NCBI GenBank assembly: GCA_963805065.1
Contig: CAWDSS010000010.1
Span: 472,359-536,358, forward strand
Reading direction: 5' to 3'
Source of the DNA: Candidatus Omnitrophota bacterium
Lineage (GTDB): Bacteria > Omnitrophota > Gorgyraeia > Gygaellales > Profunditerraquicolaceae
DNA: 64,000 nucleotides
This document shows, in pieces, positions 18,201-64,000 of this stretch. The notes below the pieces were generated by a model. That model ran no database searches. It saw nothing but the letters and a program-made list of their open reading frames with translations, and was not told the DNA's origin. Position 1 is the first letter of the stretch. Each line of letters starts with the position of its first letter. The translations under genes and the position numbers were made by a program.

Positions 18201-21200
18201 CTGATATAACAGGGCTACCTGACTTATTTCCTTTTTTAGTAACTAGCCAAGAAGAAAGTACATCATTAAGTTGTGTTAAATCTTCAAGCTTACTCTGTAA
18301 TACTTCGCTCCACAAGTCCAACTCGTCATTCAAGTGCATGATGTCAGTCATATAGGCTTGTTCCCAGTTCTCAATGAACTTGTCTTTACCAGCCAATGAA
18401 AAATATTGGCTCATTACATCAGATAAATCTTCCTGTAGTTTCTTTACAAGAGCAAAAGTATTTTGAGCGTCTTCTAATAATATATCGACTTGGTTCAGTC
18501 TTTCTTTTCTCTGTTCCGATAAAGAACGGGCGTATTTACCTGATTTTAAAACATCTAACTTGTCTTGTACTTCTTTCATCCGCAGTACTACATTTATCAA
18601 AAGGTCAGTAATATTAACGTGTTTAACCGGGCTACTGCCGGATAAATTATCCAATAAATTATAATCGGTTGGTGGCTGGAATAGTTCAGTAGGAAGATCT
18701 TTTTTATAATATTGACTATATATATCCTCGGCAAATTTTTTAATTCTTACCTTACGCTGCTCTTGTGGTCTTTGCTGTTGTTCTTCATCAAACCTATAGT
18801 AATTATCAGGAATAAATTCTCTATGCTTAGGATTCCTTTCGCCAGGATAGTTAGATAAATCTGTCGCATACTTGATGCAAGTGTCTAAAGATGCTGCTCC
18901 TGCATAACCTTTATTCTTTGCCTCTGTGCCTGAAGGCCTAATCTCTAGCCAACCCCAATCAAACATAAGATATGTTTCATCTCCTACAAATAAAACGTCG
19001 GTAAGACCAGAGAAATCTAAGCTATTAAATGCTTCGGAGAGAATATCTTTAGCTTGATCTAAATCAATTAAACCTTGTCGCTTAGCTAAAGCAATACCCA
19101 AGAAATAAGTATCATTGGTCGAACGGATGATTAGCCCTTGTTTCTTGTCTACCTCTAACTTGGCCTTATCCGGCTCATTGGGATTATAATAAACTACATC
19201 GGATCTAAAATCACACCTACTTTTGATTTTATTGTGCGTAAATATATCTTCCAAATATTCTGATAACAATTTGTCTTCTTTTTCTATAAAGCCGGCTAAG
19301 GCGGCGGTTAATACTATTGCCTCTCCTGCGGATTTTTCTCTCATGGCAATGGCTTTCCTCTTTAATATCAGGCTCTCGATAAGTTCCACAGGGCCAAATA
19401 TTTCTCCTCCGGATTCTTCGCCAGCAAATAGCAATCTTGGATTTACGCCTAAATTAATCTTGTTGCCATATACATCTTCTATAATTACAACTTCGCCATG
19501 ATGTTCACGCATGTTCTTCTCTATTTTTCTCATAATTGCGGCGATTTCCTTAAAACCAACCGGCACATTGACAACAGGAACGCCGTTTGCTTCTGCCCAC
19601 TCATCCCATGAACGGCTTGATGCCGTAGTTTTAATAATAAACCAATTGTACTTCTGCCAATAACCTGCTTCCTGTAACGATTTTGCCTGATAATCAATAG
19701 TCATTAAGAAAGACTGGTTGGGGATATAAACAACCAGCATCTTTTCATCATCTATCGGCATGTAAACAAGCCCAAGTTTCTTAATACGCTCCATATTGCT
19801 TAACGATTCAATCTGAGCTGTAACAAGTCTGTCTCCATCGGGATCAGTAATTAAAACAACTGTGCCTACCGGCACTCTTCTTAGGGTCTTTTGGTACCCC
19901 ATTGTTTCAATTACGGGAAGGGTAATTCGAGTTGTATCTATAACTAAAATCTTATTACCTAAGCTTATATAAGGAATATTTTCTTGCTTTAGACGAAGAA
20001 TAACTTTCTTATTTTCTATTTTTGCAACAACCTTACCAATGGGGGGCTGATTAATAAATATGATACTGCCAGCAGGTACATTCTTAAATAATTCAATAAA
20101 CATTTCTTCCTTGGACTGAATCAGTTCCATGATCTTTGAAGCAACTTTTTCTTTATTGATAGCCACCACTGTGGCATCACAAGAAAAATCATAAAATCTC
20201 AAAGAAGGCCTATTGTCGGATTCACCAATTTTTAATTCATAACCTTTGCCGATGCCATGGAAGAAAGAATCTTGTTTAGTATGCAGGAAACGGAATGACT
20301 TTCTTATGCCTAGATTACGGAAAATGCCGTTCATAATCTGGTACGTACAACCACCCACGCAGTCAATAATGATTGGTTTTCTTGCCCCCCTGATTAAACT
20401 AAGGTTAATTTTTGTAGCGACGCCCTTCTTAAGGTAAGGTACATAGAGTTTTATGCCGCCGTCAAGTTGTTCTAAGATATCTGTTCGAATAAATTTGCTA
20501 TCAACAGAGGCGATGCGGATTTCATAAAAACCTTTTTCATCGATAATCGCAAAGATCTTCTCTATCTCATCCAAGAATTCCTTGGATTCATTGGGTAGAT
20601 ATTGGCTTCCTTCATTATTGATATCTTTTGTAGCTGTGGTGGTAGCGATCGCGTGGCTGGCTGTAACATATTCTGCTCCCAAGAGATCCAGCATAAAAGC
20701 ATCAAAACAGGCCAACCAGATAGAGGTCTTTTTCCCTTTTATAGGCACTAAAGTTGTAATACCGTAGGCGGCTTGTAACCTTGCGATGAGCTCTACGAAT
20801 AAATCCGAATTGTAGCGCACTTCAGAAGAAACAAGCTTATAGAGTGTTCTCTCTTGATAATTCTTTTGGGCTGCTAAAATTTTTCCCAAGGTAGCTAAAA
20901 GTATTGAGAAAAGATTAATCGGATAAGAGATTCCTTTTGGGGTAACTCCCGGATAGTAAGGGTAGAGTACATTTTGATCCCCTCTGGTACCCGCAGTAGA
21001 AATTTCCGTTTCCGGTTTAAATTTCTCATAAAACCATCTTCTTAACCCTAATCCGTGAGGATTGTTCATCTCATCATAATCTTCAAGATGTTGTTTATTT
21101 AAGGTGATACTGAATTCTCCTTTTTCCGAGAGGTTTATAATATTTGCTAAAACTTTATCTTTAACCCAGTCTGGCGTAGATTTATCTATACTATCAAGCA

Positions 21201-24200
21201 ACATCTCTTCTAATCTACTCGTGGGGCTACTAGAGGCCGCTAATAATATTGCGCTATTATTTTGGCCAAGTTTAGTTATCGCACTGCTGCCTGAACGCAG
21301 GAACACAGACTCAGGGAAAAAGTCTCCGGCGCGCAGAACAGCGACAATCGCGCTGATTTCACGGAACTTATCTATATCAGTATTATCGGGGCGCCGCGTG
21401 CCGCCCATAACATTCATCAGTATGTCTCTTGCAGTTTTCTCAACTTTACTAATCAATTCATGAAGTCTTTCAAGTAAAGGCAAAGCATATTCGTCTAAAT
21501 TATCTTTCTTAATGACAGGGACATCAGAAAATAATGGGAATAAATCTTTAAGCTTGAATAAAAGTTCTAGCTGCAGTTTAATGGTAATCAAACCATCTAT
21601 CATCTTTTTATCTTGTTGCATCAGTACGATAACATCGCCTACTGATTCCAATAAATAGTTGAGCTGATTGCGTACTGCATTAAACTTATGAACATCGTCC
21701 GTAGGCTTAAGCAGATAAACTGCCTGTAATATTGCCAAATAACTTTCCCGGATCTCTATGGTATCCAAACCCGCCTTATCCAAATCTATTACTAAACTTT
21801 CAAACAAGTTGTTCATTTTCTGGTAAGATAGGTCATTACGAATATCCATCGGGCTGCTGCCGGACAAAGAAACAATAGTTTTTAGAGAAAGGGCTGCTGC
21901 GAGATTCGAATCCCAACCTGCCACGGAAGATGGATTCTCCCGAGCAGCCATTCTCATGTCCTGTCCAGCCAAGAACAGAAATAATCCTTTCAATAAAGCA
22001 AGCGCCGCTGCGGAAAGGGACTCCACCAGCCACGGAAGGAAATCCACTTTTATATTCCGCAGCGACGCTAATTCTAAACCGCTTTCTATCTTAATGGGCG
22101 AACTGATGCTGCATAAGATAAGTCTGGAATTTGCTACGGATGCTGAAACTGAGTTCGGGCCCAAGATCAACCCAAGAACCCGCAGAACTCCTTCCTTGAA
22201 CTTTACCATTATGCTGAATAAAGAATTTGTAGCTGGAACCCCAGTCATGGTATTTCGCAAGTACAAAAATCCCCGCTTTGCTAAGCTTAATCCTATCGAG
22301 TTCAAGCATCTGCCAATTAAACATGGGACACCTCCTGTTTGGTCTTGCTGCCTTAAAGGCGAAGAAACTTTGTTTTCTGACGGTGGCTGGACGGCAATCT
22401 TGGTAAAGCTATCCTTATCCACCTCAGCTTGCGTAAATTGTAACTTACTTATTTTATAGCCGTTATCTTTGAGAATTCCTATGGCTTGGTTTAGACAAGC
22501 CTTGGCTTCCTCAATAGACATGTCAACACTCTCTGCTAACCGATAAAATGTTACCCATCTTCTAATCTCTCCGGTATCATCTTCAACAGCCTTGGACTTT
22601 AAAATGATGTAGTCTATGAACTCTACAATTGCAAGGTTATTGCGGAACTCTTTAATCTCATCCAAAATACCTTCAGCTATTCCTTTAACGTTATTTAAAT
22701 AATCATTTAATCTTTTTATCACGCTTTTACGATTTTCGTAGACATATAGCAGGAGCGCCTTGAATTCATCAGAGTGTTTTAATGCTCTGATACCTCCTAA
22801 TGCCCGGTTTTCGAGTAGATACTCAAAGGACCTTCTACCATCTTGTTGGTGTTCTTTGCTAAGCTTAGAGTTGTATTTTTTGGCTACTGCCGATATGCCT
22901 AAAGCTTTACGTAAGTATCTTACGCGTGGAAGGGGCTTATCTCTTTTACCTATCCGGATAATCCCCTTTTCATTGCGGCCCATATAGCGTTGCGAAGTAA
23001 AAATTCTCATTACAATATCTGCCAAAGACTGACGGAGTTCCTTCATGGTCGGATTATTTTCCAGAGGAGAACCGGTGACTGAGAGCTCTTTTTCTAAATC
23101 CCAAATCCGTTCCTTAAGATTTATATTGCGGTCACGATAAGACAATATTCTAAGGATTAGCGTGTCTTGGACAGAATTAAGCGCCTTTTTTCCTTTGCTG
23201 CGCTTAAAATTAGCAGCCAACATTTTTCTAATTTCTTTGTTCCTTGCAATTTGATATTCGTAATACTTTATCCAAGCTCTTATATATTCAGCGGTAATGG
23301 GTTCGGGGGTCTTTTCAGCAATGTATTCTAGTAATGCTTTATTTACGCGCCGTTCATTTTGTTCTTTAATACTTTTAAGATACTCTGCAATCTTGGCCGC
23401 TTCAGCCGGTACAGTATTGGATTGTCCTGTTGTTTCTTCATTTACAGGAGAAGATGATATTTCTTCATCTAAGCTTACCACTTCAAAACTGTTTTCATAA
23501 ACGCGGACAAGGTTATGTTGCCGGTCAAACAATGCTCCTACCTGCCTGGCGCAACGAATTTCTTGTTCTGTGTAAGGGCACACATCGCATCTTATATAGC
23601 CACGGTTAATCAATGCCGCCTTTAAGGCATGTCTTTCAGCCTGTATTTCTTTATATATAGAAGAATAGTGAGGTTCTTCCGGGTCTACTCCGGGAAATTG
23701 TATTGATACATCTAAATCAGATCCTTGCTTTTCCCTGCCATCAGCATAGCTGCCAAGGACTAAAACCGGGATTGGAAAGAATATGCCTTTTAGTTCTAAT
23801 TCCTCAATCGCATCTTGAGTATTTCTTACAATATTCTTTATACGCTTCGAAGTTACTATTATCTCCGTTTTCTTTTGAGCCGGGGAGCTGGTCTGATTTT
23901 TTCGATAGGGCCTGCGCTTATGCTCTATCCTGCCATTTCTTACCTGATGCTCGATACTCTTTACTGTCCAAGGATTGCCCCTCCTGGTTTTATATCCTAG
24001 TTCATTAAGCTTATCTACAATCTGCTGAGACGTCTTTCCTTTCTTACCTTTACCTTTTTGGATTGGTTTACGTATTGATGATATTAGTGCAAGAGTTTCA
24101 TCTAATTTAACAAAATCTGCCCTATTCCATTCTAGTTTACTTAATTCAAAGCGCACAGTTCCTTCAGTTATCTTTTTTGACTCTTTTAATTCACCTCTTG

Positions 24201-27200
24201 ATTCTTCTGCAATCAAACCTGTAAGTACGCCTGCCAGCTCTGCATTAGTCATCTCTATAAAGTTCTCTAAGAGAAAACGCAATCTCCGGCCATTCCAAAT
24301 CTTAATTCCTATAAGAAAGCCTTCCGCTTCCAAAATTTCAAAAGCCATTACATACTGTTCAGGCGTATATTCTTTCCCAATAACGCGCCTGAGACATTCA
24401 ACTGTAAACTCATGCGCTCTTAATTGCCATTTGCCTCTGGCTCTTGATACTTCATGCAAGGCTTTACCTTGGACCAGAATACTTCCCCCAAAATTAGAAT
24501 CAAGCACGCCCCCAAACTCCTTGCTGTTATTTAACCTTTTAGCTGGTGAGCTGGAGCCCCGGATAATTGGCTCAGAAACATTAGATCCACCTGCAATGCT
24601 ATCTTTCTTACTACGAGTCTTATGTTTTAACATAGCCTTCCAGATAATTCCTTTGTATGGATTCATCAGGATTATACTAATGGGAGGTACGAATAACAAA
24701 ACCACAGTCAATATAATTATGTATGAGGGATTTCCGCCCGTCAGGAATGCATAATCTCTGGCCTGAATGTCATAAGCCAGATACATGTGCAGAAAATCCA
24801 TCATATAATAATGCCCTAAGGAAAGACCAATGATAAAAGCAGAGAGATATGTTCTGGTTTTTCGCAACTTGTAACCTATTAAGAACAAAAGGAAACTGGA
24901 GGCAAGGGCCTTGAGGCCACTAAAACTCACCATAAACTCTGCCGAGAATCCACAAACAACTTCTAATAAAGGTATCTCGATACGTGCTATGGAATTTCTT
25001 AAAATGGCCAGGGAAGCAGGAAAGAAAGTTATAATACTCATCCATGCAAAATCTGCAACCGCTACACTCCACACGCCAATGATTTCCCACATAGACTTCT
25101 TTCTCATGCGCGTTAGCGACGCATAATCATAGATGTCATTCTTTTGATTATCTCTACTCAAAACACTGGAAAGCAGATGTAATACTAGAACAGAAGAGTA
25201 AACTGTAAACAGTAAGGTGACGCTACCAATGAACGCCCAAGAACTGTAAGCTGCTGCGCCCATAAGGAGAAGAGGCGAAATAAAGAGTGCCGTCAAGATA
25301 ACCCCCTGCAAACGGCGAGTAATCATATCTTCACGTAATCTATTGTTTTTAACTCCGGGCGTAAACTGCTTATCTGAAAGTGTCTCCCCAGATGTAGATT
25401 TCATATCTCTTAATGCAATATCTAGTTTGGTTTGTATGTATGTTTTGGATTTTATTAGGATAATACCCAAGGGAGGTATAACTAATAAAGTTAAGCTCAA
25501 CAGTAGACAGTAAAATAAATCGTTGCTTGTTAAAATTTGGTAGTCTCCCCATCCAAAATAACTGTAAATAACAGTTGAAGACATTTGCATAAAATTCATA
25601 ATATAATAATGCCCCAGAGAAAAAGCCATCAAGAAAACAGAAAGACGTGACTTGGTTTTTTGCAACTTGTAACCTAGCAAGAATAAAAGTAGGCTGAAAG
25701 CCATTGTTCCCAGAACCCCAGGAGCTATCCAGAATAATTTCATAACGGTATTATGGTCAAAAATGCTAAAAATCCTATAGGGGTGTTCAAAATCACTAGG
25801 ACCAGCTCCCCCTCCTGCATCCTCAATTAGGTATTTATAAAGAGCCGTTATTATATCCTGTCCTTTGATTCGCGCTTCTTTATATGCATCCAGTTTCAAA
25901 AGGAAAAGGTCTATGGGAGGATGATACGCAAGACTCGAGCCCAACCAATGTCCTAATTCATGGAAGAAAACCCCAATCCCTATACCCAATTGGTCAATTC
26001 CTACTGCTAACATCCCCAAGGATGCCCAGATATATTTCTTTTGCGATTTCGCTATTCCATGCTTTCCGGCCGTGCTCTCTAAGGTAATATTTTCTTGATA
26101 ATTATTTTCAAATTTGAAAAATGCACGTAACGTCAAATAAGAAAATGGAATCATCATAAATAACCCAATACCTTCAGCATAATGCCACATACTGTCAAAT
26201 GACCATCCGCAATAAGTATCTACAGCGGACACTATAATCTGAGTTACTATGAATGCCATAACAGCATAAGTCCACTGACGCCAAGGCGGAATAACTTCAT
26301 TTAGGCTTAGGTATGGGGATTTCTGGAAGATGCTCTTTAATTTTGCATATTTGGCCGGAGAACTGGAGGACTGCGCCTCTTGACTTTTGTTTAGATTAGC
26401 CGCTGCAGCAGAAACTACCGCCACCAGCCACGGAAGGTCAATAGTTCCCTCTTCCTGCAGCGGCTTAACCAAAAATAACCCGCCAGAGAGTAGAATAATA
26501 TACTCCCCACCAGCCACGGAAGGTAAAGTATATATCTCGATAACCTCTCCAGCGGGTAATCTGATACGTATAAATAATTCTAAAGGCGAACTAGAATTAT
26601 GTATTTTTAACGTAAGCCTCTTGCCTTCCAAAGTGTTGAACGTCACATCATAAATCTGGACAGCAAGGTCTGTGAGAATACGCTTATATAGGTATTCTAA
26701 TGAGAGGCGGCTACGGTATCCCTCAAGGTATCCTCTCCATACGTTAGAATTTGAAGTAAATAAATCTAAGTACCCCTGAACCGTCTTTTTGGGATAATGC
26801 AGGCTATACCATTCAGCAATCTTTGTCATTGCCCCTTCGCCAGTTGGCACAAGGAACTGACCCTTGGCAAGTTTTTTCAAACTTTCATCATTGTCCGCAG
26901 CATCTTTTAAAACGTTGCCCCAATCAGGATTACCCGAAGCATCGAATCCTCCAGCAAAGTTAATTTCGACTGTCATTTTAGAAATTACTAATTCTATTGG
27001 CGTTATTTCAGATAAGAAATTAATTATATTGGGCCTTATGGCCGGCGGGACACCCCTACGCCACTGATAATTCGCTACACCGCTAAGCAAATGAAGTAGC
27101 GTTTTTTCTTCAGACGAAATTATTCCTTTATCAGAAAGCTGGGAGATAAATTGTAATTTGTCCCAGGCGCTTAGGTTTTCAAATTTGAGGTTTTCAATAA

Positions 27201-30200
27201 GGAGGGAATCAATGAGGCTGGCAATCTGCGCAAATTCTTGTAAAGAAGGTACATTTTTTATTTCTTCCAGAGTCGGGGGAGCACGGCAGTCGGTTGTTAA
27301 ACGTTCAATATAGAAAAGAATAATTGCTCTGTCCGCAGTAAGCTTACGCCTTTTACCCATCACCAGATCAAAACCATGCTGCCCAAGATAAATAGCGTAA
27401 TCCTTTAAAAGGCTTTGCGATGGATTATCCAAGCTTAGCCTACCAGCTGCTGGCTTATTTTCTTCTCTAAGAGGCTCTTTATTCCTCTTATTTACAAAAC
27501 CTCTAATAAAATTATTATTATTAGCTATTTGTTTATTCATAATCTTAAGATAATCCTCTAAAATTTCTTTAATAGCATTAAAGCCTTTATTAATAAGACT
27601 ATTTCCAACTTCCAGAGCAATTTTTACCGTATCAAATGGTGATGTTAGGTCTTCCTTACGGTAAAAACTATGCTTCCCTGTTAATCCTAATTGATTTTCT
27701 AAGGCAGCTATTGAATTTAAATCAACTGGAACTTGATTAGAGATTATTTTATCTATATTTCCCAAGGCCGCTTCCACTTTGTGAATTCGCATGTAGGTAC
27801 TGTCTATAATGTGAGCGGCCTGTCTAATTTTCGGCACTAATTTCACATCTTCTTCGCCCAAATTAAAGGACTTAAGTATATCTAAATATGCCTCTGGAGT
27901 TTCAATCGGGTTTGGCATAGTTTCATTTATAGGGCTGCTGGTTCCGAAGCCAGCCTCTTTTGATTCAGGATTATTGCTGCCGTTAGCAGGCACCTCGCAA
28001 GAAAATACGCCATCCACAACCTGCTCTAAGAAACCAATCGCCTGGAGAGTTATCAAGGCCTTTTTCTTTATATTGGGCTCTGACGTGGCATATTTTGCAA
28101 AAGTGGCTATCTGTTTTTCAAGCCGTTTTAACCCTGTGGCAGCCACCAATTCCTTAACATGCCTCAAAACATCTCCCTCGCGATAGCTACTGGAATGATG
28201 GAAGAATATACTCCAAATCAAAAACCTTCCTTCCTCAAGAGCGCGTATGGATTTAACATTGTTCAAGAAAGAGACGATGCTTGTCTTATTACTGCTATTT
28301 CCCCATATGGGTTTTTGTACATGCACCCAAGCCTTATATTTCCATTCAAACTCACCAATCACGCGATCACCGATATAACTTTCTTTAGCAAAAACAGTTT
28401 TAAGATTTTCTTTGCTGTCTGATCTCAAAGCCTCGATAAAATCGGAGAGTTCCTTTCTGGCGATAATGGCTCTTTCCCACAGTTTGATATGGGCTCGCGA
28501 CTGGCTCCTCTCAATATCCACCTTAGGTGTGGTGGCAATAGCTTGATACATAGCTTCCCTGCGTGATTCCTCTGTCTGATAAATCCTGCCTAACCACAAG
28601 AAAGATTCATAAAGACTCTTGACCTCGAGGTTCCGTCCTCCCATATCCGGATCTCTAGGGTCAGTATCAGAAAACTCAACCAAATGTCCATTGGTAATTT
28701 CAAGCTTATCAGCCATAAGACCTTCAACAATTTTATCGTGGAGTTTGCTTGTGGTGACCCTAGATTTAAACACGTCCAGGAGTTTCTTCGTTCGCTTTTT
28801 AACAATGTTAAACAATTCGGGCATGGCTCCGCCAAATACTCCGATTAAGACCGCAGCATTCACCAGAGCCTTCATAATGCTTGTCGCCGAGGCCTCAAGT
28901 AATTCAAAGGCCAACATAATAGCCGCATTGACTGCTTTAAAAATAATCTGTGCATCTTTAATATTGTAGTTTTCTATAAAAGCAACCCTGTTTTCTAGCC
29001 CTAATTTTTTCGCGAGCCGCTTTAACTCATCAAATAAATCCTTGGCCTCATCATCGAATAATCTGCCGCCGATAATCAGACGAGTGCCGGACTTTTTGAG
29101 CTCATCCAATGCCGAGGCGTCATTTTCAAGCCATTTAAACATTTCCTTATATTTCAACGGCCCCTTATACTTAACCTGGCGCCTGACATTTGCGGCAATA
29201 GGATGTTTCATTAAAATATCCACAAGTGTTGAGAACGTATCAAATGCATTTTGCCATTGAGATTCATCTTTGATGCCTCTTCTTATAAGTTTTTTGAAAT
29301 AATCGCGCACAGAATTTATATCCATGAGGCCATACGGCGTGTCCTTAAATATCTCTCCGAGCCAAGTGGCGCCTCCCATATCCTGCGTCTGATAAGTATT
29401 CAACCATATCAAGAACTCAAGCATATAGAGAGCCTTAATCATCTCGAGACGTTTTTTAAATTCTTCCTTCAAATCACTGTTCCGCTTTTTGGCAAAAGCA
29501 GTAAAAAGTTTCTTGTCTTCCACTTGCTCCTCAAGGCCTAACTTCTTTTTAAACTGCTCAATCAATTGTCGAAACTCTATCCCTTGCCATTTATCAAGAA
29601 GAACGCCGTTGGTGTTACGAATACTATCCGTTCTATAACTCCATACCTTATGCAACCAAGCTGGTAATACCTTTTCTCTTAAAACAGGCGTATGCTCAAA
29701 TAACCCCACGCCAGTTGTAAAATCAACGCTTAGGAGAGCGTATTCAGCAATATCTATCTCTCTTCCTTTTTCTCCTAAACGCACGATGTAAGGCCTGTAA
29801 GACTCATCAAAACCCAGCAATTCAAAAGAGTATTCCCTTGGCCTATACATCCCGTGTTTCCAGACCGTATGATTGATGTGCTGACGAATGGGCTGACGTA
29901 GTAATATGGCATCGCAAAAATGTTTTTTAGGAAGACTTACGTAAACTTCATTTTCCAGGAATATGATCTTCTCTTTTGCTGCACCTCTTTTTTGTAGTTC
30001 TTTGACTAATAGTTGCTCGGCTTCGTTATAAACTGCCATCTGGACATCGCGCCAATCATTGTCCGGATATAACTCATTAAAAATATAGATTTTCTCGTTC
30101 TTCTCATTGTAATAATAGGCATCCTGATAATAAATAGGGAACTTTCCATAGAGGCTTTGGGTCCTGTAGATGTCCACCTTTATCGGCTTTCCGATAATCT

Positions 30201-33200
30201 GGCGAGCGGCTTCCACATTGGCTTTTTGCTTAAACTCTTCTCCTGTAAGCGTAATATCCGGTATTTGAATGTCTGTCTTTTCTAAGGCTGCTCTGATAAT
30301 GTCTCCAAGAAGATTTCCATGAAGAATATCCTTTATCATTGGCTCTGGTAATTCTTTTGGCAGCTCTCTTACAATCCCTTTGATAAGATTATAAATAGAA
30401 TTAATGGAAGTTATGTCAACGCCGTTTTTGGCATCGCCATCCGTTAAATCAGGCATAAGAACTCCCAAGCCGCCCGCCATAACAACCTGTGCCACAAGAC
30501 GAGCAAGATGTTCCAAGGTCTCTTTCTTCATTAATCCTTCCTGATAAAAATTAGCGTATTTTTTAAGAATGACTTTTTCTGTCACCTCTCCGAGACGTTC
30601 AATCAAACCCCTGTCTAAGGCATTTTCGAATTGTAAACTAACGACTGTGTATTTCCCAACGACAGGTGCATTCTTCTTCACCCAGCTACGTTTATCCTGC
30701 GCTGGGTTAACATTCCTCTCAAGCGGCGAAGATGATAACCTGGCCAGCTGCTTACTGATGATGTCTTCATATTTGGCTATCTTACCGCTGGTAATCCAAT
30801 CTGGATCAAACTTTTGAAGCTGGCGTAATAATTTTTCGTAAGCTGGCTTGTCATGGACATAGAGATTAAAAAGTTCTTTGGTTGCAACAAAAATAGCTTT
30901 GGCGCTCTTCATGCGCTCTCTCACTGAAACTTTATCATTACCAATTTCAAATCCAGGCACAAGCTTAAATGCCCCTCCCATATTATAAAAATCAACCAGC
31001 CCGCCCCTGGCAGTAACAATCATGGGTACTAAAAGTTCTGCCATCTCTTGGTCAAGCAAACCACCCGGTTCATCAATAGAAGGCATATCGCCACCTTCAC
31101 TACCAGCGCCAGCCTGCCCGGCCAAAGTAGTATTAAACTCATTTACAAAAACAAACTTTCCCTTATATTTCCCCTCAGCTACAATTGCATTAAGCTTTTT
31201 AACAATATCCTTCCCAATCACATCCCTCTCACCCGCGGTACCTTGAATATATAGCTGTAATTGTGCACCGGTTGCTTTATCTTTAATGGATAAAAGGGCG
31301 TCAATCAGCTTTGGCCCGCCTTTGTAAATCGGGGCAAACAAAATATTCAAGCCTTTTTGCTTTACGATTCGTCCGATAATTAAGTTTATAAAATTATCCG
31401 GGTTGAACGCATCAAGCCCGACTTTTTTCTGAAATGCGCGCTTATTGTGTTCTTTCCAGCCAAGAACATCTTCTTCAATCTCTGCGATAAATCCTTCCTG
31501 TTTCAACGCTTGAAGATTTTCAGGTCTGTATTTCGCAGCCCTTAAGCCGTTATAGACAAACTCTAATTTATCCCTCATAGACTGCAAAACACCATCTAAT
31601 CCATAACCTCTTGCAACTGTGAGAGCCTCATTCATATGGCCTTCGCTTACAAACACAATTTTATCTGCATAAATAAATGCGCCCTTCATTAAGTTGAGGC
31701 CTTCATTACCTCCCTTTGTTTGTAATTCTGCTCTTAAATTAGTCAACTTAAAAATCTCAATGGCAAGATTGGTTTCAGAAACATGGTAATAATTTGCTGT
31801 CGGGTCTGCGTAATGGGCATGGTGCTTCAAAACACCTCTTTCAAATAAATATTGCACCAGTTTATCATTCAAAGACTCGATCATTGTGCCGGGGAATAAT
31901 CCTTGATATTCAAGATTGTGAGTTGTGAACAATCTCATAGGCCTCCTGCCTAAAGGCCATTTTTTATTAGCATATAATTCTTCTAAGAATACTGGCCCAA
32001 ATCCTGTCTGCCAGTCGTTAAAATGATAGGCGTCAAACTGAACATTTAATATTTCGGGAATAATCAGAGAAGCCAAGGGCAAGTTAATCCCCTCCAGATA
32101 TCCTCCCAAAGAATCTGGATCAGGTTTAGCATAAAGATCAAAGAAAATATTTCCCGTGCTGTCATAAAGCAATCCTATGGGTACACCTTCCTGCTCTGCA
32201 TAGATAACTTTTAGTGGGTAGGTACCAAAACCCACAGGAACCTCAATATCCATAAGCTGCTTAGCACCAAAAGCCTCCATAAAATTATCAATGGTGCCAT
32301 ACGTTACTAACACATCATTGAAGAATAGAGGTTTCGTTACAAAGGAAGCAATGCCTTCTTGAGATGAAACGATTGGAACATCACCCATATAAACCGCCTG
32401 TCCTCCACCCTGACCGGAAGCCTGTTTTAATTTATTCCCAGTTTTATCAAATAAGGGCATTTCCATAGCAACAATATTTACAGCAAATTTTCCATTCTTT
32501 CTGGCTAATGCGATTCTGTCGACAATCTTCTTGTGTAAGGCAGCATTTATCTCTACCGGGTTAATTGGGCTGCTTGTACCAAGTTTTTTAGAAAGGGAAT
32601 ATTCTGAAATTATATCTATGTTCTTATCAGAACCTTTGAAATAATAAAGCGCGGCAGTTTTTGCTTTAAATCCTCCCCAAACTCTGCTATGTAATATATC
32701 CAACACCTGCTTTTCATTTTCTGTTAATTCTTCTTCCAAGTAGCCCATAGTAGCATGCGGTTTATATGTAGCATAAGCCAGTACAATTTCCGGAGCTATC
32801 TGCTCATGTAATGCAATTATTTCAACGAGGCGAGTGAAATCAGCATCGTTCATGTGCATCGGAACATATAAAGCTAAGTTAGGTTTAGGCATTACTCCTA
32901 AACCCCTGGCTTCAAAATTGACGATAGATAATCTGGCGGGCAATATCTCATCAGAGAGGATTTTGGCTTTCTTAATAAAATCCTGTTTAATCGGATTAAC
33001 GGATGGCTTAAAACCAACTATGGTAACGTGATTGGTTTTCGGATTATTCCAAGAAATTTTGTCTAATATAGCTTGTGTTAACTCCTGTTTCAAAACAGAT
33101 TGTGTTTCTTCCATCATTCTAGTCTCAATAGGAAATGCGGAATAAATACTGTATCGCTGAGCTACAATAGAGATTGTCGGGCTGCTGACTTCAGCCTTTT

Positions 33201-36200
33201 GAGCTAAAATATTATAGTTATCTAAAGTCGGCCTTCCTGGATTCACATGTTTGACCATAGGCTCGGCATACTTAATGACAAAACCCGATCTTTCCAGATA
33301 GAGCTTAATTGTATCAAGAGTAAAATGGAATAAATGTTCCATTAAATTCAAAGATGGGCCATCCTTGGGCGTCATGGGCACACGTAAAAATACAAATCTT
33401 TCTGGCTTCAAAATACTATGTATCTTCTTTAAGAAAACCAGAGGTTCTTTTAAATGCTCTATTACAGAAAAAGCAGTTATAAGGTCGAAATCTTTACTTA
33501 TGAAATTTGTCTCCAGAAAATCATTATTTATAACCTTGATGCCGCTCTGTCTTATTCTTTGGCAAGTTTTTTCGCTTAATTCAACAACAGTAATATTCCA
33601 ATCTCTTTCTTTTGCTTCTTCATATGTCAGGCTTACTCCCGGCCCGATTTCTAAATATTCTAATTTGGGTCCAAACAATATCTCGGGATCGGCCTGTCTT
33701 AAGGCAGCCTCAACAGTATCAAATTCCTCCTGAGCCCTTCTGCGTATTTCTTCTTCCGGCAACAATTTTGCATATCCAAATTGTAAACAATTGAGGCTCT
33801 CAAAATATCTATCACTATAAATATACTCAAAATATGTTTCCCCGGGTTGAGGGTTCATAAATATCAATCCCTCGGCATCGATATCAAAGAAAATTTGCCT
33901 TCCGTTGAGCACAATAGAGGTAACATGCGGATAATCACCCAGGTAAATGAATTCATCAAACACGCTTTCTGGTAAATCAGAAAGATTTATGTGGTCTGCC
34001 ACAGGAACTGCTGCATCAACCTCTTTAAACTGATAGATATTTGCTTTTCTATTTATGCCCTCCTGAACAGCCATCGGGCTGCTGACTGAACCCTCTACCT
34101 CTTCTTCATCATTCATGACATAGCGGTTAATAAACTCATCGGTCGTCATGTGCTCCAGAGGCTTAGTTGTTATGGTATTCCAAAACGCTTCTATTGCCTT
34201 TAATTTTCCCCAGCCGAATTGATGCAAAATCCCCATGGCTTTTTTAACATAATCATTTCTTTCTGTTTCCAGCCTCATCCATTTCCAAAACGCATCCATC
34301 GCTTCATAACAGGCCAAATCAAAGCTGTATTGCTCTATACATTTTTTTTCATCAAGAGGATAAAATTTAAGCACATCCTTTTGAGTAATCAGATACTCAA
34401 AAGGCCTTTTGTCTTTTGTTGTTTCCCAAAAATCATTTACTGACGGCATCAAGAAAATAATACCGCTCCTTGGATGCAGATGAGCTGCTACTTTGCATAT
34501 TTTTGAATCGAAAGGAGCAGCAAAAGAACATGTTAAATTATCTTCTCCTGTAATTTGATATCCCTTCCTAATCCACCATAAACCCGGCTCTTTCTTTAAG
34601 AAAGCATATTCACAATAACCATCTTTTAGAGCTAATTTGACAGAATCAGCAACGATCTTTCTGTCTTTCACGAAGACCCCTTCATTGGCTCCAAGACTAC
34701 TAAGTAATTCGCGAGCATTTCTTGCTCGGCTCGAATCTCTTACAAAAGAATTGCTCGATACATAAACGTTATTGAAATCCCCGGTAGCTTTTCCTATTGC
34801 TACAATGCCAACTATGAAAGCAAGCAATAAAGTAGAGAGCCATAATTGAGGCAAGTTCATAACATTAAAAATCAAAGAATAAAATGAAATCGAAATAACG
34901 ACTAAACTAACTGCAGCTATAACTCCATCTTGTGAAATAAGCTTAGCCAGTTTTTCATGGCGGGCTGAAAAATCCTCTACCGTTGTCTTCCATGACTCAA
35001 CTACTCTATTACGCGTCTCTTTTAAGCCTGAAACCATCGGGCTGCTACCCTGTCTATTAATCCTGTCTAGAATTTTGTTAATTCTATTATTAACTGAATC
35101 AATGATAACTGACTTAAGCAGGACTGCTTTGCGGTATTGCTCTAACAAGGATTGTTCATACGCCTTTGCGGATAGACTTGAATCAACCTCGGCCCTTGCA
35201 TTCTCAAACGAAATTCCTCCTTCTCTTACCTTCTTTGTAATAAATAACGGCCTTGCGCCTTCAGATATTCTGGATGGCTCATAAGGAGCCTTGGTTATCA
35301 ATTTTAGAATACCTTCATCCGTTCCATTAAACGCACCTAAATCAATCTTTTTAACATCAAATCCTGCCATGGTTAACATCGTGGCAAAGGTTATGTAATT
35401 AAAATGGATTAAATGATAAGAATGAATTTCGCCAAACTCTTTACCCTGAAGTACACCCAGTAAGCTCAACATATCTGGAGATTGTGCGATTAGGATTCCA
35501 TTATCCTTAAGGAGGGAATTTGCTTTCTTAAGCATGGCCAGTGGCTCTGTGGTATGCTCTAATACATCAATCAAAGTAATAATATCAAATGTACCGGCTA
35601 TATCAAATATAGTGCCTTGTTTAACCGGTATGCCTACTTCTGCAGCCCTTACTACAGCTTCTTCTGATATCTCTATTCCTTCAGCGCGCCAACCTAACTC
35701 CTGAGCTGCTTTAACCAGCCATCCACAGGCAGCTCTTACATCAAGCAGTCTTATTGCTTCATAATCCTTGATGCCAAATAATCTTTTTACAGGTTCCAAT
35801 ATACCTTCTTTAAGGTTCTGAGTGCTTTCTCTCTTGCCAAAATAGTCGTTATATCCTCCCTTCCCTTCGCCTTGCTGGAAATAATCAAACCCATACATCT
35901 TTTTAAGTTCGCTTTCAGTCGGGAATGGTTGATTAAATACTAATCTACATCTCTGGCATTTAAGAATATCAAATTTACGATTGATGCCCCTGTATAATCT
36001 ATTACCAAGGTAAACTTCTAATTCTCCAGATTTGCATAAAGGACATCGTATAGGGCTACCGGATAACCCATCCCTAGCTCTCTCCAATAACTCAAATACT
36101 CCCAGCTCTTCTAAATCTTTAATAGCATCCTTTTTATTTAGTGCAGATTTTAGAAGTTTTCCCATTCCCTTATCTACGGCTATGCCAACAGCTGCTCTTA

Positions 36201-39200
36201 AAGGCATCGTTTTTACAGCTGACCTCATCATTTCATATATATCCTTTTCAATCTCTAAGCTAAACTGATGCTTAAGACGCAATGCTCTTAAAACTGAACC
36301 TAAGAATAAATTATTGCCGTCACCAGCAAAACTAACTTTTCTTCTTAATAAATCTTCCAGGCTCTCTACATGGCCATACAAATACCCTTCGCTATCCATT
36401 GCCATATATAATAAAGAAGGTCCAGTATATGAGAGGTACATTTGTTTAGTACCAGCATCCACCATGAATTGCTTTGCGAAGTATTTTTCTCCTGTGCCTT
36501 CATATACACCCTCTGCTGGTCCGACATATTCCACAGAGGCGCCGCGGAATAAAACAATATTCTCTCTTCCGCTTTTGATTAACTTCTCTGTTTGGACGCC
36601 CATAGTTGCGGAAAGTTTAGATAATGCCTGCATGGCTCTGTCATTAATTGCTTTAGTTGCCCTGCTTCTTGTGTTAATAAGCCTTTCCCCTTCTTCCGGA
36701 GTGACAAAGATTTTTACTGTTATATCTATATCAGACACTGGCAAATTGAATAAAATGTCTCTAATGGTCCCTCCTATAATAACAATATCCGTTAATCCAT
36801 TTTTATTAAGCAATTCTAAGAAGGCCTTTAATTTCGAATCTCGCATTACTGCTGGATTGATTCTCTTCTCTTCGATAGCTTTCTTAACTAAAGCAATATC
36901 TAAATTTGGAACCTGACGCTTCCACAATCTTATCGGACTTGATGTAGCATTTAGCTCATTCAATTCTTTTCTAAGAAGTGTTAATTCGTTTTCTAGCTTA
37001 GTGGCTTTTTCTTTTGCTACTTTAAGATTGCTTTCTGCTTCTTTTTCCTGGATAAGGACGTTATTCTTACGGACCTGTATGTCATTTAACTTCTGAGCTA
37101 CTGTCTGTGCTTTATTTTGAATCGGTTTTAAGGCCTCATTCAGGGCGCTGACTGTATTTTGCCTATTTAACTTGGTGGCATTTTCAATATCTTCCGTAAG
37201 TTCCTTAACAACAGTATCGATATCTGACTTTTCTTTAACCGCGGCATTCAATTGTGTTATTAAGTCGTTTTCTTGGGTGAGTGCAGCATCAAGCTTGGGC
37301 TGAAGAGCTGCAACAGCTTGTTTAAGCTCTCTTAAGCTGTTTTCTTTCTCGCCAATAACTTTGTTCAACTCTACTATTTTCTCTAGCCTCTTTATTCTTT
37401 CTGCATCCTCTTTCTTCTTCTGCTCAATTGTTTCGGCTAAGACCTTGGCTGTATTTAGCCTGCCTTTTTCTTGAGCTTCTTTGAGGGATTGCTCGAGTTC
37501 AGAGAGGCTGGCTTGCAGTTTGGAGAGAGCTTGTTTGGGTTCTGGAGAGGGCTTCTTAGACACTTCAACTACTTCTAAATGTTCCGGAGAGTCAACTACC
37601 CATTCTTCCCATTCTTCATAACCCTCCCAGTACGGACCAGTGCAACTATATCTTGTTTCATTATGTCCTACTTCTGGTTTATATATTAGCTTGAAGAAGT
37701 CTAAGCCTTTTTCTCTGATTTTGACAGCCATAGGTAGTAAACCAAAAAGATAACCTTCTGAATGAAACTGAGTTTTTTCAGTAACTTGCATTGCCTGAGT
37801 TTTTAATTCAGAAAGAATGTTTTGAATGAACTTGGCCTTGGGACCACCGATCTTAATAATTGCCTCGGCCATTGTTTGAGGTAAGTTTCCGGAGCGCAAC
37901 TTTTCCATTAATGGCTCTATGGCAATCGGGTTACCCAGCTTGCCAAGAGCTATGCCTATGGCTTGAAGCGCATCGCCAGTTGAAGATTTTAAGGCTGCAA
38001 TCAAGGGTTCCACAGCTTCAACGTCAAGTAAATCACCTAAGGCAATAGCAGCTTCTTTGCGTACCACTAAATCAGAGCTCTTCAGAGCTTTAATGTTAGC
38101 CTTAACCAGCTTTTCTTTGCTAACTCCGATATTTTCTAAAGTTTTTCTTGAAGCCTGGCGAACGCTGATTGCTTTATCCTCAAAAAGCTCTAGCAAATGG
38201 TCTGTAGCTTTTGTGTCTCTGAGAATATCAAGGGATTTTACTGCTGCTTCGCGTACCTGCCACGTAGAATCTTTTAAAGCTCTAATCAAGAATTCTAAGG
38301 CTTTTTTATCCTTTAATTCACCCAAGGATAGGGCTGCATCAACTCTCACATTTGAGTCTGGACTCTGCAATGCCTTAATGTTAGCTTCAACAAACTGATC
38401 TTGAGTGGCTCCCAATTTTCTTAACACTGTGATTGCAGATATACGAACATTTCTATTCTCGTGAGAAAGTTTTTCTAAAATATCTCCTATGGCATTTTTT
38501 GCTGATAAAATTCCCAAAACCGTCATTGCTGTTATCTGTGAATCTGAACGGCCTTCTTTCAATACCTTTAATAAACTCTCTATAGAAATTTTCTGAATTC
38601 TCTTACTTTTAACCTTTTGCCATTTTTCAGCAAAACTGACAATCTCTGACTCAGTCGCAGGTCTTAAATAACGTTCGCCTTTTAAGATACTGAATACAAA
38701 AGTGGCATTGACTACCAAGCCTATCAGAGAACCGAGATATCCAACAACCAAACCTATCGGTTCCTCTATGGATACCCATGCGAAGAAAATATAAACGCCT
38801 AATCCGGCCAAACTCATTGGCAGAAAATCTTCGGGAGCGCCTGCAGGATCAAAAAACCCGCGATATAATATTTTGGTAATTATCGAAATTCTATTTCTAA
38901 TGCCCAAACCAAAATTCTTGGTAATTTTATTAACTTCATAAGCATTCTTGATGGGGTAAATGACAGAGAAAATCACAAAAGGAACTATATAGGGTAGGGA
39001 AATCCACAATGCAAATCGCCACCCAATAGGAATAGCGCTCAAGAAACTTGTTACAGACTCTAATAGTGGGACGATGTTGTTAAAAATTGACAAAATCGGG
39101 CTGCTGGATGGCACGCCATAAATGATTGAGGCAAGTGGACGTCCACCGTGATCCTTGAAATACTTTCCTGTTGTGCTATTCAGCCCTGGCTCACCCATTA

Positions 39201-45200: not shown

Positions 45201-48200
45201 ATTTCTTATGCTTTTTTTCTTCGCTGTATTCTGTATGTAAGTCTTCTAGTAAATCTTCATATCTTAAATACCATACATCTGCTATGCCTTTGATTAATTC
45301 TAAATAACCTATCAATTCTTCAAGTGTTTCTAATTCAGCTAGTAATGCAGGTATAAAACCTCCCTGGAAAGTAATCCGGTAGAAGAAAGATTGATATTTG
45401 GCTAAATCAGTTGCAAAATCTTCGAGCTTATCCAATCCTTGAGCATATTTAGAAATATTGTCTTTTGACCATTTAGCTAGGCTAGGTACGGCATGCATTA
45501 AGACGCAGCATGGCAATAGCCCTTTATCTATTAATTTAATACCCAAATTAAATGAAAGTTTTAAAACCTCATTACTTTTTTCAAAATTACTACTAACTCT
45601 TATCAATTCTTTAACTATTATTGTAATATTATCTAAGGAGAATTTCTTTTGCTCGAGTTTCTGTTTAAATAAAGCCAAGATGTTCAAAGGCTCTCTGTTA
45701 TAATCTAATTCTGCTATCTTAAGTAATGAGTCTGCTGCGTATAAATCCTCTGTTTCCACTGTTATTTTAATCAAGGAATCTACTGAATCATAACCAATTG
45801 CAGTTAATACATGAAAAACTCTATTAGGATATCGACAATTCTTTGATTTGAGTGCACTTATGAGTGGATTGATTGCGCGTTTCCTTTGTTTAATAAGAAT
45901 ATTCGTCAGATCTGAGCGATTCCCTTCAAAGTCATTAACCATGTACTTTACTAAAAACTCTATATCTGGAATCGAGAGGTTCTGATATTCCATACGAGAG
46001 TAATAACGTAGTATTTTGTTAAGTTTCTTTTGTTCTTTTCTTCGTTCTTTATAATCTTTTGGTTGCAATACAACATCACTAACTATAGCTAGTAATATAC
46101 CTGTAACAAGAGTTAGTCCTAACCCGGAAGAAAGTACTATATCATAAGTTGAACATCCTCCAATTAAAGATAATAAACTAAACAAAAGTAAGATATATAT
46201 ACTTCTATAATTAATAATTTTATTTAATAAGCTTATTTTAATTGACTTGCTATAAGATTTATTAATCAAAGCGCAGAGCGTTTCCTTAGCTTTAATTTCA
46301 TCATATCCGGCTTTATAAAGCAAGGCTTCTTTGGCTAAGTCAGGTTGAGTGGTATATAGTGCTACGGTGAGTTCTGTTTGCTTTTGTGAAGCTTCCCGGT
46401 CTTTCTTTTGCGCTTTGAGAGCAAAGATTTCTTTTAAGGCTGCATGATTAGCTTTGGCTAAGTCTGGGGCACGGACTTTAAGATATACTAATTCATTCTC
46501 CAATACCTTCTTATATGCTTCTTTGGTCCAATCGTATAACATCTCTTTAGCTTTGGCTTCATTGTAACTGGCTTTATAAAGCAAGGCTTCTTTGGCTAAG
46601 TCAGGTTGAGTGGTATATAGTGCTACGGTGAGTTCTGTTTGCTTTTGTGAAGCTTCCCGGTCTTTCTTTTGCGCTTTGAGAGCAAAGATTTCTTTTAAGG
46701 CTGCATGATTAGCTTTGGCTAAGTCTGGGGCACGGACTTTAAGATATACTAATTCATTCTCCAATACCTTCTTATATGCTTCTTTGGTCCAATCGTATAA
46801 CATCTCTTTAGCTTTGGCTTCATTGTAACTGGCTTTATAAAGCAAGGCTTCTTTGGCTAAGTCAGGTTGAGTGGTATATAGTGCTACGGTGAGTTCTGTT
46901 TGCTTTTGTGAAGCTTCCCGGTCTTTCTTTTGCGCTTTGAGAGCAAAGATTTCTTTTAAGGCTGCATGATTAGCTTTGGCTAAGTCTGGGGCCTTAGCTT
47001 TGATGTTCCCTAGTTCGCTCTCCATTAATTTTCTATATGCCTCTTCAGTCCAAGTGTAGAGCATTTCTTTGGCCTTAGCTTCATCATAGCCGGATTTGTA
47101 GAGCAGGGCTTCCTGGAAAAGCACGAGTTGATCTTTCAGGTTATGTATAGTTAAAACCAATTCATAGAAAAGCTTTTTGGCTTTATCTAGATTGTTATCA
47201 GCATTGTCCAACATAAGCGCCTGAGCGGATTGAGAAGCTTCATTCCAAATCTCCTCTATGAGCGCTTGTTTATATTTATTGAGGGCGTCTTTAAATACCT
47301 TTTCTTTTGCTTTCTTTTGATCATTATTTGTAGCTTCTAAGGCAGCGGCTTTGGTATTTTCGTCAGCAGTATTCCATGTTTGGTCTATTAAGCCCTGAGG
47401 TGCTTTTTCTCTATCAAGAGCTTCTTTTAATTCCCTTGCGTGCGTCCAGGCAAAATTGTGGGCATGGTTAAAAGCAGCTATCAATTTAGTTTTCTCAGAT
47501 TTGTTTAAATCTAGGAGTTTATTCCTAAAAGCGGCCATAAAGAAGATACCATTATCCCAAAGTTGAGTAGCAACTTCTTGTTTTTGGACAGTAACGTGCT
47601 GTTTGTTTTCTTTCAGGCTAAAGATTTTCGCTAAGCTGGCGTGATTTGTTTTAGCCAAGTCTAAAGTTTCATCTATAATGTTGTCTAACTCATCTTCCAT
47701 CATCTTCCTATATGCCTCTTCAGTCCAGGCATAGAGCATTTCTTTGGCTTGAATTTCATCATAGCTGGATTTGTAGAGCAGGGCTTCTTTGGCTAAGTCA
47801 GGTTGAGTGGTATATAGTGCTACGGTGAGTTCTGTTTGCTTTTGTGAAACTTGCTGATCTTGCTGTTGCGCTTGGAGAGAAAGGATTTCTGCTAAGCTGG
47901 CGTGGTTTTTACTAGCTAAGCCTAAAGTACGCATCTTAATATCAAATAACTCATTCTCCATGACCTTCCTATATGCCTGCTCAATCCAATCGTATAGCAT
48001 TTCTTTGGCTTGAGTTTCATCATAGCCAGCTTTATAGAGTAAGGCTTCCTGGGATAAGAGAGTCTGGATGTTATATAGTGTTTCAGCGAGTCCTGTTTGC
48101 TTTTGTGAAGCTTGCTGCTCCTGCTTTTGCGCTTTGAAAGAGAAGATTTCTTTTAGGGCTGCGTGATTAGTCTTGGCTAAGTCTAGGGTTTTAGATGTGA

Positions 48201-63999: not shown

Positions 64000-64000
64000 G
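61090..64000 (-). repeat. 88-aa (264-bp) tandem repeat array: at least 10 identical units plus one degenerate terminal unit, continuing past the window end
   Basis: The unit is TLQDIINSYKNAASFNQQGGLDAVRLLYTDLAGVKFLGTTDEKIGVSTKSAVLRQIVFDAVANIGKTSIKGVDIDTGAVITTTLDTAL. DNA identity with period 264 runs from 61277 to 64000. Nine identical antisense shadow ORFs in the track, spaced 264 nt apart, confirm this. The degenerate unit lies at about 61090-61276. Confidence 0.95.

Follow-up and report, generated by a model that had tools for sequence, protein, structure and literature searches.

Five modules within a giant minus-strand reading frame

The DNA analysed here, which we refer to as the window, is a 64,000-nucleotide (64-kb) stretch of contig CAWDSS010000010.1 from a Candidatus Omnitrophota bacterium, and our subject is a run of five consecutive protein modules, numbered M1–M5, encoded on its minus strand at 32566–36933. 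One minus-strand frame contains no stop among the 21,333 codons of the whole window and is open at both ends, and the remaining five frames have 872–2,072 stops each. The encoded protein (the window protein) has a length of at least 21,333 amino acids (aa), with the gene running past both window edges. Because this one frame is open from end to end, only three open reading frames (ORFs) of at least 150 aa appear in the program-made list for the window, which holds no ordinary genes, and GC skew is negative across nearly its entire length, consistent with a single long minus-strand gene. As the window is a single stop-free minus-strand frame, the region 32566–36933 lies inside one giant ORF and corresponds to aa 9020–10475 of the window protein (~1,456 aa; amino acid i starts at plus-strand coordinate 64002 − 3i, and the protein order M1 to M5 is the reverse of the plus-strand order). 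An earlier note on this DNA, made from the sequence, had claimed five consecutive modules here; all five exist, and the coordinates it gave match the outermost two of the serine–serine–proline (SSP) type sites at which we cut the modules (aa 9020, 9314 (GSP), 9652, 9973, 10272 and 10476).

Transmembrane predictions place eight membrane-spanning sites or clusters along the window protein, whose long N-terminal part has no Pfam match and contains perfect tandem repeats. The five modules are preceded by HEAT repeats and a coiled coil, and are followed by a GlgA-like glycogen synthase (1.4e-34), an α-glucan phosphorylase-like module and a phosphoglucomutase (PGM)-like module. The Pfam and NCBIfam inventory of the window comprises GNAT, NAGPA, HEAT, Methyltransf_11/23, GlgA/GT5, phosphorylase/GT1 and PGM, together with a minimal nucleotidyltransferase, a SidJ-like pseudokinase, GAF-HD_5, TPR, DUF4135 and HAD modules. 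With the whole 1,456-aa region as query, one weak HEAT-type match was obtained among 5.8 billion proteins, none in GTDB genomes and a single methyltransferase-level match in JGI metagenomes, and no relative of the five-module arrangement was found in any of these three collections.

The last of the five modules, M5 (32575–33186, minus strand; aa 10272–10475), carries the HVT and HAT motifs from which the earlier note had read a 2H phosphoesterase, and that assignment was confirmed by profile comparison, structure prediction and structural search. The first motif, H-V-T-I (33019–33030; aa 10324–10327), aligns to HITL of 1vdx, and the second, H-A-T-M (32746–32757; aa 10415–10418), to HITLG of the same structure. 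Searched as a single sequence, M5 had no match in Pfam or the PDB and scored only 0.049, below the cutoff, against TIGR02258. Exhaustive HMMER searching of 1.84 billion representatives recovered 10 relatives; seven exceed 1,600 aa, and the other three are short ORFs that look like fragments. The alignment of these homologues conserves NHVTIxGF and PHxTxGY. The first motif is conserved in eight of the 10, and H144 and T146 of the second are nearly invariant in the alignment (A1). The family profile built from A1 matched 1vdx (3.6e-8), 2fyh (6.6e-8) and AKAP7 (9.8e-4) with both HxT motifs aligned, as well as the Deinococcus RNA 2',3'-cyclic phosphodiesterase. The AF2 model of M5 has a pLDDT of 89.7 and a pTM of 0.85, with disorder confined to the SSP-containing ends, and in Foldseek it gave 56 matches to the PDB at E ≤ 0.001, the listed top 50 of which are all 2H proteins. 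The best of these was 1vdx (E 7.2e-9; TMq 0.70 / TMt 0.76), and 1vdx, E. coli LigT, AKAP18 and drCPDase together span TMq 0.64–0.70 / TMt 0.64–0.77, with ASCC1, CPDase and Usb1 also among the listed matches. M5 thus shows the two H-x-[TS]-x motifs, the profile similarity and the bilobed alpha+beta fold by which 2H proteins are recognised; as modelled, its fold is that of the LigT/ThpR-type 2H phosphoesterases, whose two catalytic H-x-T motifs it keeps, and it is probably active. Its expected substrates would be nucleotides or short RNA fragments, whose 2',3'-cyclic phosphate ends it would hydrolyse. We also observed that Tyr replaces the first catalytic His in two of the homologues, P0010 (residues ~488–625) and P0011/L002 (residues ~2483–2621; TYGT, PYAS), with the second HxT motif intact in both, and these members may be inactive or altered variants.

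All three M5 homologues with a complete taxon in the source name are from Candidatus Omnitrophota (these include MCX5704069.1 and MCQ9208145.1), and P0011 lies on the Candidatus Omnitrophota chromosome OY759724.1. The 2H module has a different set of neighbours in each homologue, with no recurrent methyltransferase partner and one nucleotidyltransferase partner: in P0005 they are uridine-kinase-like and ARMT1-like modules and the series NTP_transf_2, 2H, HD_3; in P0007, Metallophos and HD modules precede 2H; in P0009, CofD and PHP do so; in P0008, 2H stands between a B12-binding module and EamA plus radical SAM modules; and in P0010 it is followed by GT4/GT1, epimerase and radical SAM modules. 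What does recur beside the 2H modules is nucleotide and phosphoester chemistry (HD, HD_3 (YfbR-like), Metallophos, PHP and uridine-kinase-like modules), and because of these neighbours we propose a theme of nucleotide and phosphoester scavenging for M5. The neighbours hint weakly that it is in the scavenging of nucleotides, and not in RNA repair, that the 2H modules have their role.

At the other end of the region, M1 (36061–36942, minus strand; aa 9020–9313) has the head, neck and start of the body of a truncated class-II (CCA/PcnB-type) nucleotidyltransferase (NTase), as judged by Pfam, NCBIfam and PDB comparisons. The GGxIRD…DIDI pattern noted earlier is present as GGTIRD-x8-DID within GGTIRDILFNLPVSDIDI (36721–36774; aa 9076–9093), which was read directly, aligns to GGAVRDLLLGRPIGDVDI of 1miv, and has the form of class-II motif A (GGxVRD-x(8-10)-DxD). 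The corresponding NCBIfam model for CCA tRNA nucleotidyltransferase, PRK13299, was matched at 8.1e-9 (35 bits against a cutoff of 290), NCBIfam pcnB at 4.2e-4 (19.3 bits against 305.65) and Pfam PolyA_pol at 1.1e-3 (19.8 bits, below the 23-bit gathering score), so that M1 stands below every curated class-II NTase family cutoff. Five distinct CCA-enzyme sequences in the PDB gave weak matches (E 0.076–0.099) in two collinear stretches, and in the alignment to 1miv both motif A and the motif-C/neck region correspond, M1 retaining a motif-C-like G..DL..R stretch and a neck helix with an LRxLR pattern. Elsewhere the family features are lost, among them motifs B (RRD) and D (EDxxR), through which these enzymes recognise ribose and base. 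The acidic pair of motif D has changed from ED to GS (GSVLRALR in M1, EDALRMMR in 1miv), and the position of motif B, which we infer by ungapped extension of the same alignment, reads YTG instead of RRD. The 294-aa module reaches only to around residue 243 of 3h37, the T. maritima enzyme of 441 aa, with an SSP boundary directly after, and because it ends some 150–190 aa short of the CCA enzymes (taken as roughly 400–440 aa at full length) the tRNA-binding body and tail are absent. No homologues of M1 were found by a word-based search. Judged on sequence, M1 is a derivative of the CCA/PcnB nucleotidyltransferase family that has kept the metal-binding motif A and lacks several defining features, and it would no longer build tRNA CCA ends.

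The two methyltransferases of the earlier note, one with a zinc ribbon, correspond to M2 (35047–36060, minus strand; aa 9314–9651) and M4 (33187–34083, minus strand; aa 9973–10271), which match Methyltransf_23 at 4.7e-15 and 2.2e-14, respectively. The zinc ribbon, CPLC-x25-CQRC, is N-terminal in M2 (35947–36045; aa 9319–9351; read directly), and the paralogous stretch of M4 is free of cysteine. M2 and M4 share 27% identity over 210 residues (E 1.4e-13) and no other modules of the window form a paralogous pair; the glycine-rich S-adenosylmethionine (SAM) motif I is atypical in M2 (LLDVRAACG) and canonical in M4 (LEIGPG). UbiG is the best named NCBIfam model of the pair (2e-8 for M2); M2 also matches 3cc8 in the PDB (5.3e-11), and M4 matches Pfam Methyltransf_11 (1e-11) and 3mgg (2.9e-5). 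The nearest solved structures of the pair are the uncharacterised methyltransferases 3cc8, 2p7h, 3l8d and 3mgg, together with UbiG, and there was no Hen1 model among the NCBIfam matches of either module at E ≤ 1. Their profiles identify M2 and M4 as paralogous class-I SAM methyltransferases of the Methyltransf_23/UbiG-like type, and their substrates would be small molecules or glycans and not RNA ends.

M3 (34084–35046, minus strand; aa 9652–9972), which lies between the two methyltransferases, is the membrane-associated module that the earlier note had left without an identity, and it indeed combines two transmembrane helices with a soluble domain of ~235 aa and has no family match. The helices (aa 9693–9711 and 9718–9736, with Kyte–Doolittle peaks of 2.48 and 2.14; 34792–34923, minus strand) are joined by a loop of ~6 residues, which puts both flanks of this hairpin on one side of the membrane. 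The soluble domain had no match in Pfam, NCBIfam, PADLOC or the PDB and no homologues by a word-based search, and an AF2 model of it made without an alignment was unusable (pLDDT 35). It does contain the string HLHPRSGIIFLMPSVND (34432–34482, minus strand; aa 9840–9856), read directly as HLHP-x9-PSVND, whose likeness to JAMM/RadC proteins is at the level of the motif only and whose spacer is 10 compared with seven in the JAMM signature E…HxH-x7-S-xx-D. The searches lend no support to a JAMM/RadC identity for M3: there was no JAB match in Pfam and no match in the PDB, and BLASTP against E. coli YicR gave an E of 1.4 with the HxHP letters alone aligned.

RNA ends and the probable autonomy of the modules

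The explanation we favour, with a probability of roughly 60%, is that M1–M5 are five autonomous enzyme modules within a multi-enzyme giant membrane protein of the Omnitrophota type and do not form a dedicated RNA-repair pathway. The five would lie in the enzyme-rich, presumably cytoplasmic part of the protein, each of about ordinary protein size and set apart from the next by a hydrophilic, disordered linker of the [TSG]-SSP-[VIM] type. The helical hairpin of M3 would hold the stretch at the membrane, where the modules may work side by side, either tethered or after cleavage, with no substrate channelling between them.

A different view was taken in the earlier note, which had likened the cluster to an RNA repair or modification toolkit. 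In its fullest form this would be a cassette for RNA 3' ends, in which M5 opens 2',3'-cyclic phosphate ends, M1 extends or rebuilds the 3' end and M2 and M4 methylate it, the logic of CCA repair or of Pnkp/Hen1 being fused into one polypeptide; we regard this as distinctly improbable. The part of the claim that stands is the placing of M1 (CCA/PcnB family) and M5 (LigT/ThpR-like) in superfamilies concerned with RNA 3' ends, and the part not upheld is the repair toolkit. Neither Hen1, Pnkp, RtcB nor RNA ligase was detected with NCBIfam at E ≤ 1e-3 within the 10,000 aa of aa 6401–16400 (5,000 aa on each side) or with NCBIfam in any of M1–M5, and Pfam detected none of these in the whole window, although divergent modules could escape such a search, as M5 did. 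M1 is degenerate, being without motifs B and D and without the tRNA-binding body and tail, M2 and M4 are nearest to UbiG and uncharacterised methyltransferases, and M1 and M5 are separated by ~950 aa and three intervening modules. The arrangement does not recur in the 2H homologues, where the neighbours shift, or elsewhere (5.8 billion proteins, GTDB and JGI), and the modules flanking the region are HEAT repeats and glycogen enzymes. The earlier note had also set out what would speak against an RNA link, namely small-molecule methyltransferases combined with an unrelated NTase family, and the modules divide on this: M2 and M4 are closest to UbiG and uncharacterised methyltransferases, as that description would have it, but M1 belongs with the CCA/PcnB family.

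There are nevertheless several points which weigh against autonomous modules and which favour, or leave room for, an RNA 3'-end function. Characterised members of both the class-II NTase and the LigT-like 2H superfamilies act on RNA 3' ends, and the E. coli CCA enzyme has, alongside its NTase, an HD domain that is a cyclic phosphodiesterase. A loose association between NTase and 2H modules is possible, since P0005/P0016 has an NTase directly upstream of 2H and HD_3 downstream. M4 has a marginal match to RrnaAD (1.6e-5; 24.6 bits against a gathering score of 24) which extends over the N-terminal, SAM-binding portion of the model alone. Since Pfam-level searches missed M5, the many unannotated segments could conceal divergent RNA-repair modules, and M3 could hold a missing activity. 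The comparison of 2H neighbours is thin because there are 10 homologues, some of them short fragments, and the location and substrates that we assign to the modules are ones we infer.

The losses seen in M1 and M2 also bear on whether the modules are enzymes at all, as they might be relics or scaffolds, decayed and non-catalytic, within a giant protein whose role is structural or adhesive. Motifs B and D are gone from M1, motif I of M2 is degenerate (RAACG), the first catalytic His is replaced by Tyr in two of the M5 homologues, and the sequences are highly divergent and have few relatives or none. We think general decay very unlikely, however, as M5 keeps both HxT motifs and a confident fold, M4 retains the canonical GxG motif, M1 retains GG..RD and DxD, and a stop-free frame of 64 kb argues for ongoing purifying selection.

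A serine–serine–proline motif at the module borders

Every one of M1–M5 is bracketed by a motif of the [TSG]-S-S-P-[VIM] type, which at the module starts takes the slightly wider form [T/S/G]-S-S-P-[I/M/V/L/T]. The site at the start of M1, read in translation, is at 36934–36942, and the further border sites are at 36052–36060 (GSP), 35038–35046, 34075–34083, 33178–33186 and 32566–32574 (all minus strand). In the window protein SSP is the top over-represented tripeptide, found 35 times against an expectation of 2.7 (13-fold), and all 35 sites come after aa 6400 in the enzyme-rich part (aa 6495–21248; ~250–44520, minus strand). In 33 of the 35 cases SSP is preceded by T, S, G, A or V, and in every case it is followed by V, I, M, L, T or A. 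The 18 intervals occupied by recognised domains contain none of the 35 sites (P ~0.001 by simulation), the flanks are hydrophilic (Kyte–Doolittle −0.67 compared with −0.23 for the background, a difference of ~4 standard errors), and [S/G]SP sites lie a median of 304 aa apart, which is roughly the length of a typical bacterial protein. The serine codons of SSP mix TCN and AGY, so it is the peptide rather than the DNA sequence that is under selection; the same variation rules out a DNA-level repeat or signal as the source of the motif.

SSP also flanks the 2H module in P0005/P0016 (along with SSA variants) and in P0011. The 3,331-aa protein P0008, from an Omnitrophota metagenome-assembled genome (MCQ9208145.1), instead has LQTSSTRK seven times (residues 51, 796, 1697, 1959, 2354, 2727 and 3224), bracketing its 2H module, which suggests lineage-specific punctuation motifs. 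No SSP was found in L003 and L004, distant relatives of P0011 with ~27–31% identity, and on this account we regard the SSP motif itself as lineage-specific. It could mark linkers or processing sites.

If SSP were a processing site, the window protein would be the precursor of a polyprotein that is cut into enzymes of ~300 aa, with the five modules being independent and M3 perhaps acting as a JAMM-like peptidase anchored in the membrane. Where the functions of the modules are concerned, this agrees with our preferred explanation, but we consider it unlikely. The strong excess of SSP, its selection at the peptide level, its placing around all five modules and outside every recognised domain at a median spacing close to that of ordinary proteins, and the same role being played by SSP in P0005/P0016 and P0011 and by LQTSSTRK in P0008 are all in its favour, as is the HxHP-x9-PSxxD string of M3, and cleavage of giant proteins was proposed by West-Roberts et al. 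(10.1101/2023.11.21.568195). On the other hand, no protease domain was detected in the window with Pfam, the JAMM resemblance of M3 is not significant and its fold prediction reached a pLDDT of only 35, the distant relatives L003 and L004 are without any SSP, and the same SSP data are also explained by a conserved flexible linker or a site of serine modification. A bolder version, and in our view quite an unlikely one, would take [TSG]-SSP-[VIM] and LQTSSTRK to be lineage-specific processing signals and the giant Omnitrophota ORFs in general to be bacterial polyproteins cut into ~300-aa enzymes, with M1–M5 among those released and M3 maybe a JAMM-like peptidase. West-Roberts et al. state that the cleavage points of giant proteins are unknown (10.1101/2023.11.21.568195), and if true this version would supply them.

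Other modules of the window protein and comparison with known systems

The further minimal NTase which the earlier note had placed at 23.4–23.9 kb is a separate Pol-beta-type module of 145 aa with SSP at both borders (23455–23889, minus strand; aa 13371–13515); it matches NTP_transf_2 above the 21-bit cutoff (4e-5, 24.4 bits) and is of the MntA-like type (NCBIfam, 4.8e-4). It lies, together with a multi-transmembrane cluster (aa ~12580–13110), between the phosphorylase-like and PGM-like modules of what would be a fused glycogen-metabolism set, which brings GlgA-like, α-glucan phosphorylase-like and phosphoglucomutase-like modules into one polypeptide (~19240–32300; aa ~10570–14920). Further along the protein are a module resembling SidJ-related pseudokinases and polyglutamylases (~15484–16122; aa 15960–16172; NCBIfam NF033874, 1.7e-16), of a type seldom met except in Legionella-type effectors, a signalling module made up of GAF and HD_5 (HD-GYP-like) (8623–9594; aa 18136–18459; 2.1e-36) and a DUF4135 (lanthionine-synthetase-associated) module (3886–4209; aa 19931–20038). 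At the opposite end of the window there is a tandem repeat of 264 nucleotides (88 aa) in 10.3 copies with 100% identity (61277–64000), which runs off the window and raises the local GC to ~0.5; such perfect identity could be due to very recent expansion or to an assembly artefact. Two arrays of 261 nucleotides (87 aa) were also found, one with 2.6 copies at 100% identity (46309–46992) and the other with 3.1 copies at 75% identity (47621–48441). A role in anti-phage defence was considered and rejected, as PADLOC gave only a generic methyltransferase (mad2) and weak NTase matches.

Set beside bacterial Pnkp/Hen1 and RtcB repair systems, the five modules offer an end-healing phosphoesterase, an end-modifying methyltransferase and nucleotidyl-transfer chemistry, but no kinase, ligase, Hen1-type methyltransferase or RtcB is detectable, the methyltransferases are UbiG-like and there is no conserved arrangement; an RNA-repair system would have been notable here, and the evidence does not support one. 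Compared with class-II NTases (the CCA-adding enzymes and PcnB; PF01743), M1 shares motif A, the motif-C-like stretch and the neck helix, and differs in being without the RRD of motif B, in having GS for the ED of motif D and in being ~150–190 aa short. M5 resembles LigT/ThpR proteins (1vdx, 5ldm and 5h7e) in having H-x-T-x motifs ~90 residues apart, a bilobed fold (TMq 0.66–0.70 / TMt 0.73–0.76) and a similar size (~185 of its 204 aa). It differs from them in having only 10–15% identity, in being missed or scored below the cutoff by Pfam and NCBIfam, in being embedded in a giant polypeptide and in belonging to a family of 10 representatives in which all legible taxa are Omnitrophota.

The closest likeness of the window protein as a whole is to the giant proteins of the Omnitrophota, which have been described as membrane-anchored strings of cytoplasmic enzymes (10.1101/2023.11.21.568195; 10.64898/2026.06.07.730766). 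Nielsen & Lui (10.64898/2026.06.07.730766) list PF08241 (methyltransferase), GNAT, HAD, HD, PF08323 (starch synthase), PF00534, GT1, PGM and HEAT among the families of the 'multi-enzyme metabolic' class, West-Roberts et al. 2023 (10.1101/2023.11.21.568195) report glycosyltransferases, methyltransferases and others in Archaeovorin-type proteins, and near-unique sequence is reported for 80% of Omnitrophota giant proteins (10.64898/2026.06.07.730766; 10.1101/2023.11.21.568195). The window protein shares with these an ORF of more than 20,000 aa, many transmembrane helices and a long Pfam-free N-terminal part followed by a string of enzymes; the characteristic Pfam set (PF08241, PF08323, PF00534, PGM, HAD, HD, GNAT and HEAT) is present, and its sequence is essentially unique. 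Since it matches this class, enzymes beside a large non-enzymatic N-terminal part are to be expected, and the view in the earlier note that they were surprising in a protein with a large ectodomain falls away, as this had already been described. What the two descriptions (10.64898/2026.06.07.730766; 10.1101/2023.11.21.568195) do not mention are 2H/LigT-like and PolyA_pol-type modules or a linker or cleavage motif between modules. New for the Omnitrophota giants, then, are a previously unremarked and very narrowly distributed LigT-like 2H family, whose place in other proteins, beside kinase modules and nucleotide phosphohydrolases, is a hint that these host-dependent bacteria scavenge nucleotides, and a truncated module derived from a CCA enzyme. 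The motif at the module borders is the lead most worth following, as it provides a handle for the informatic cutting of giant proteins before structure prediction and lets proteomics address whether they are processed.

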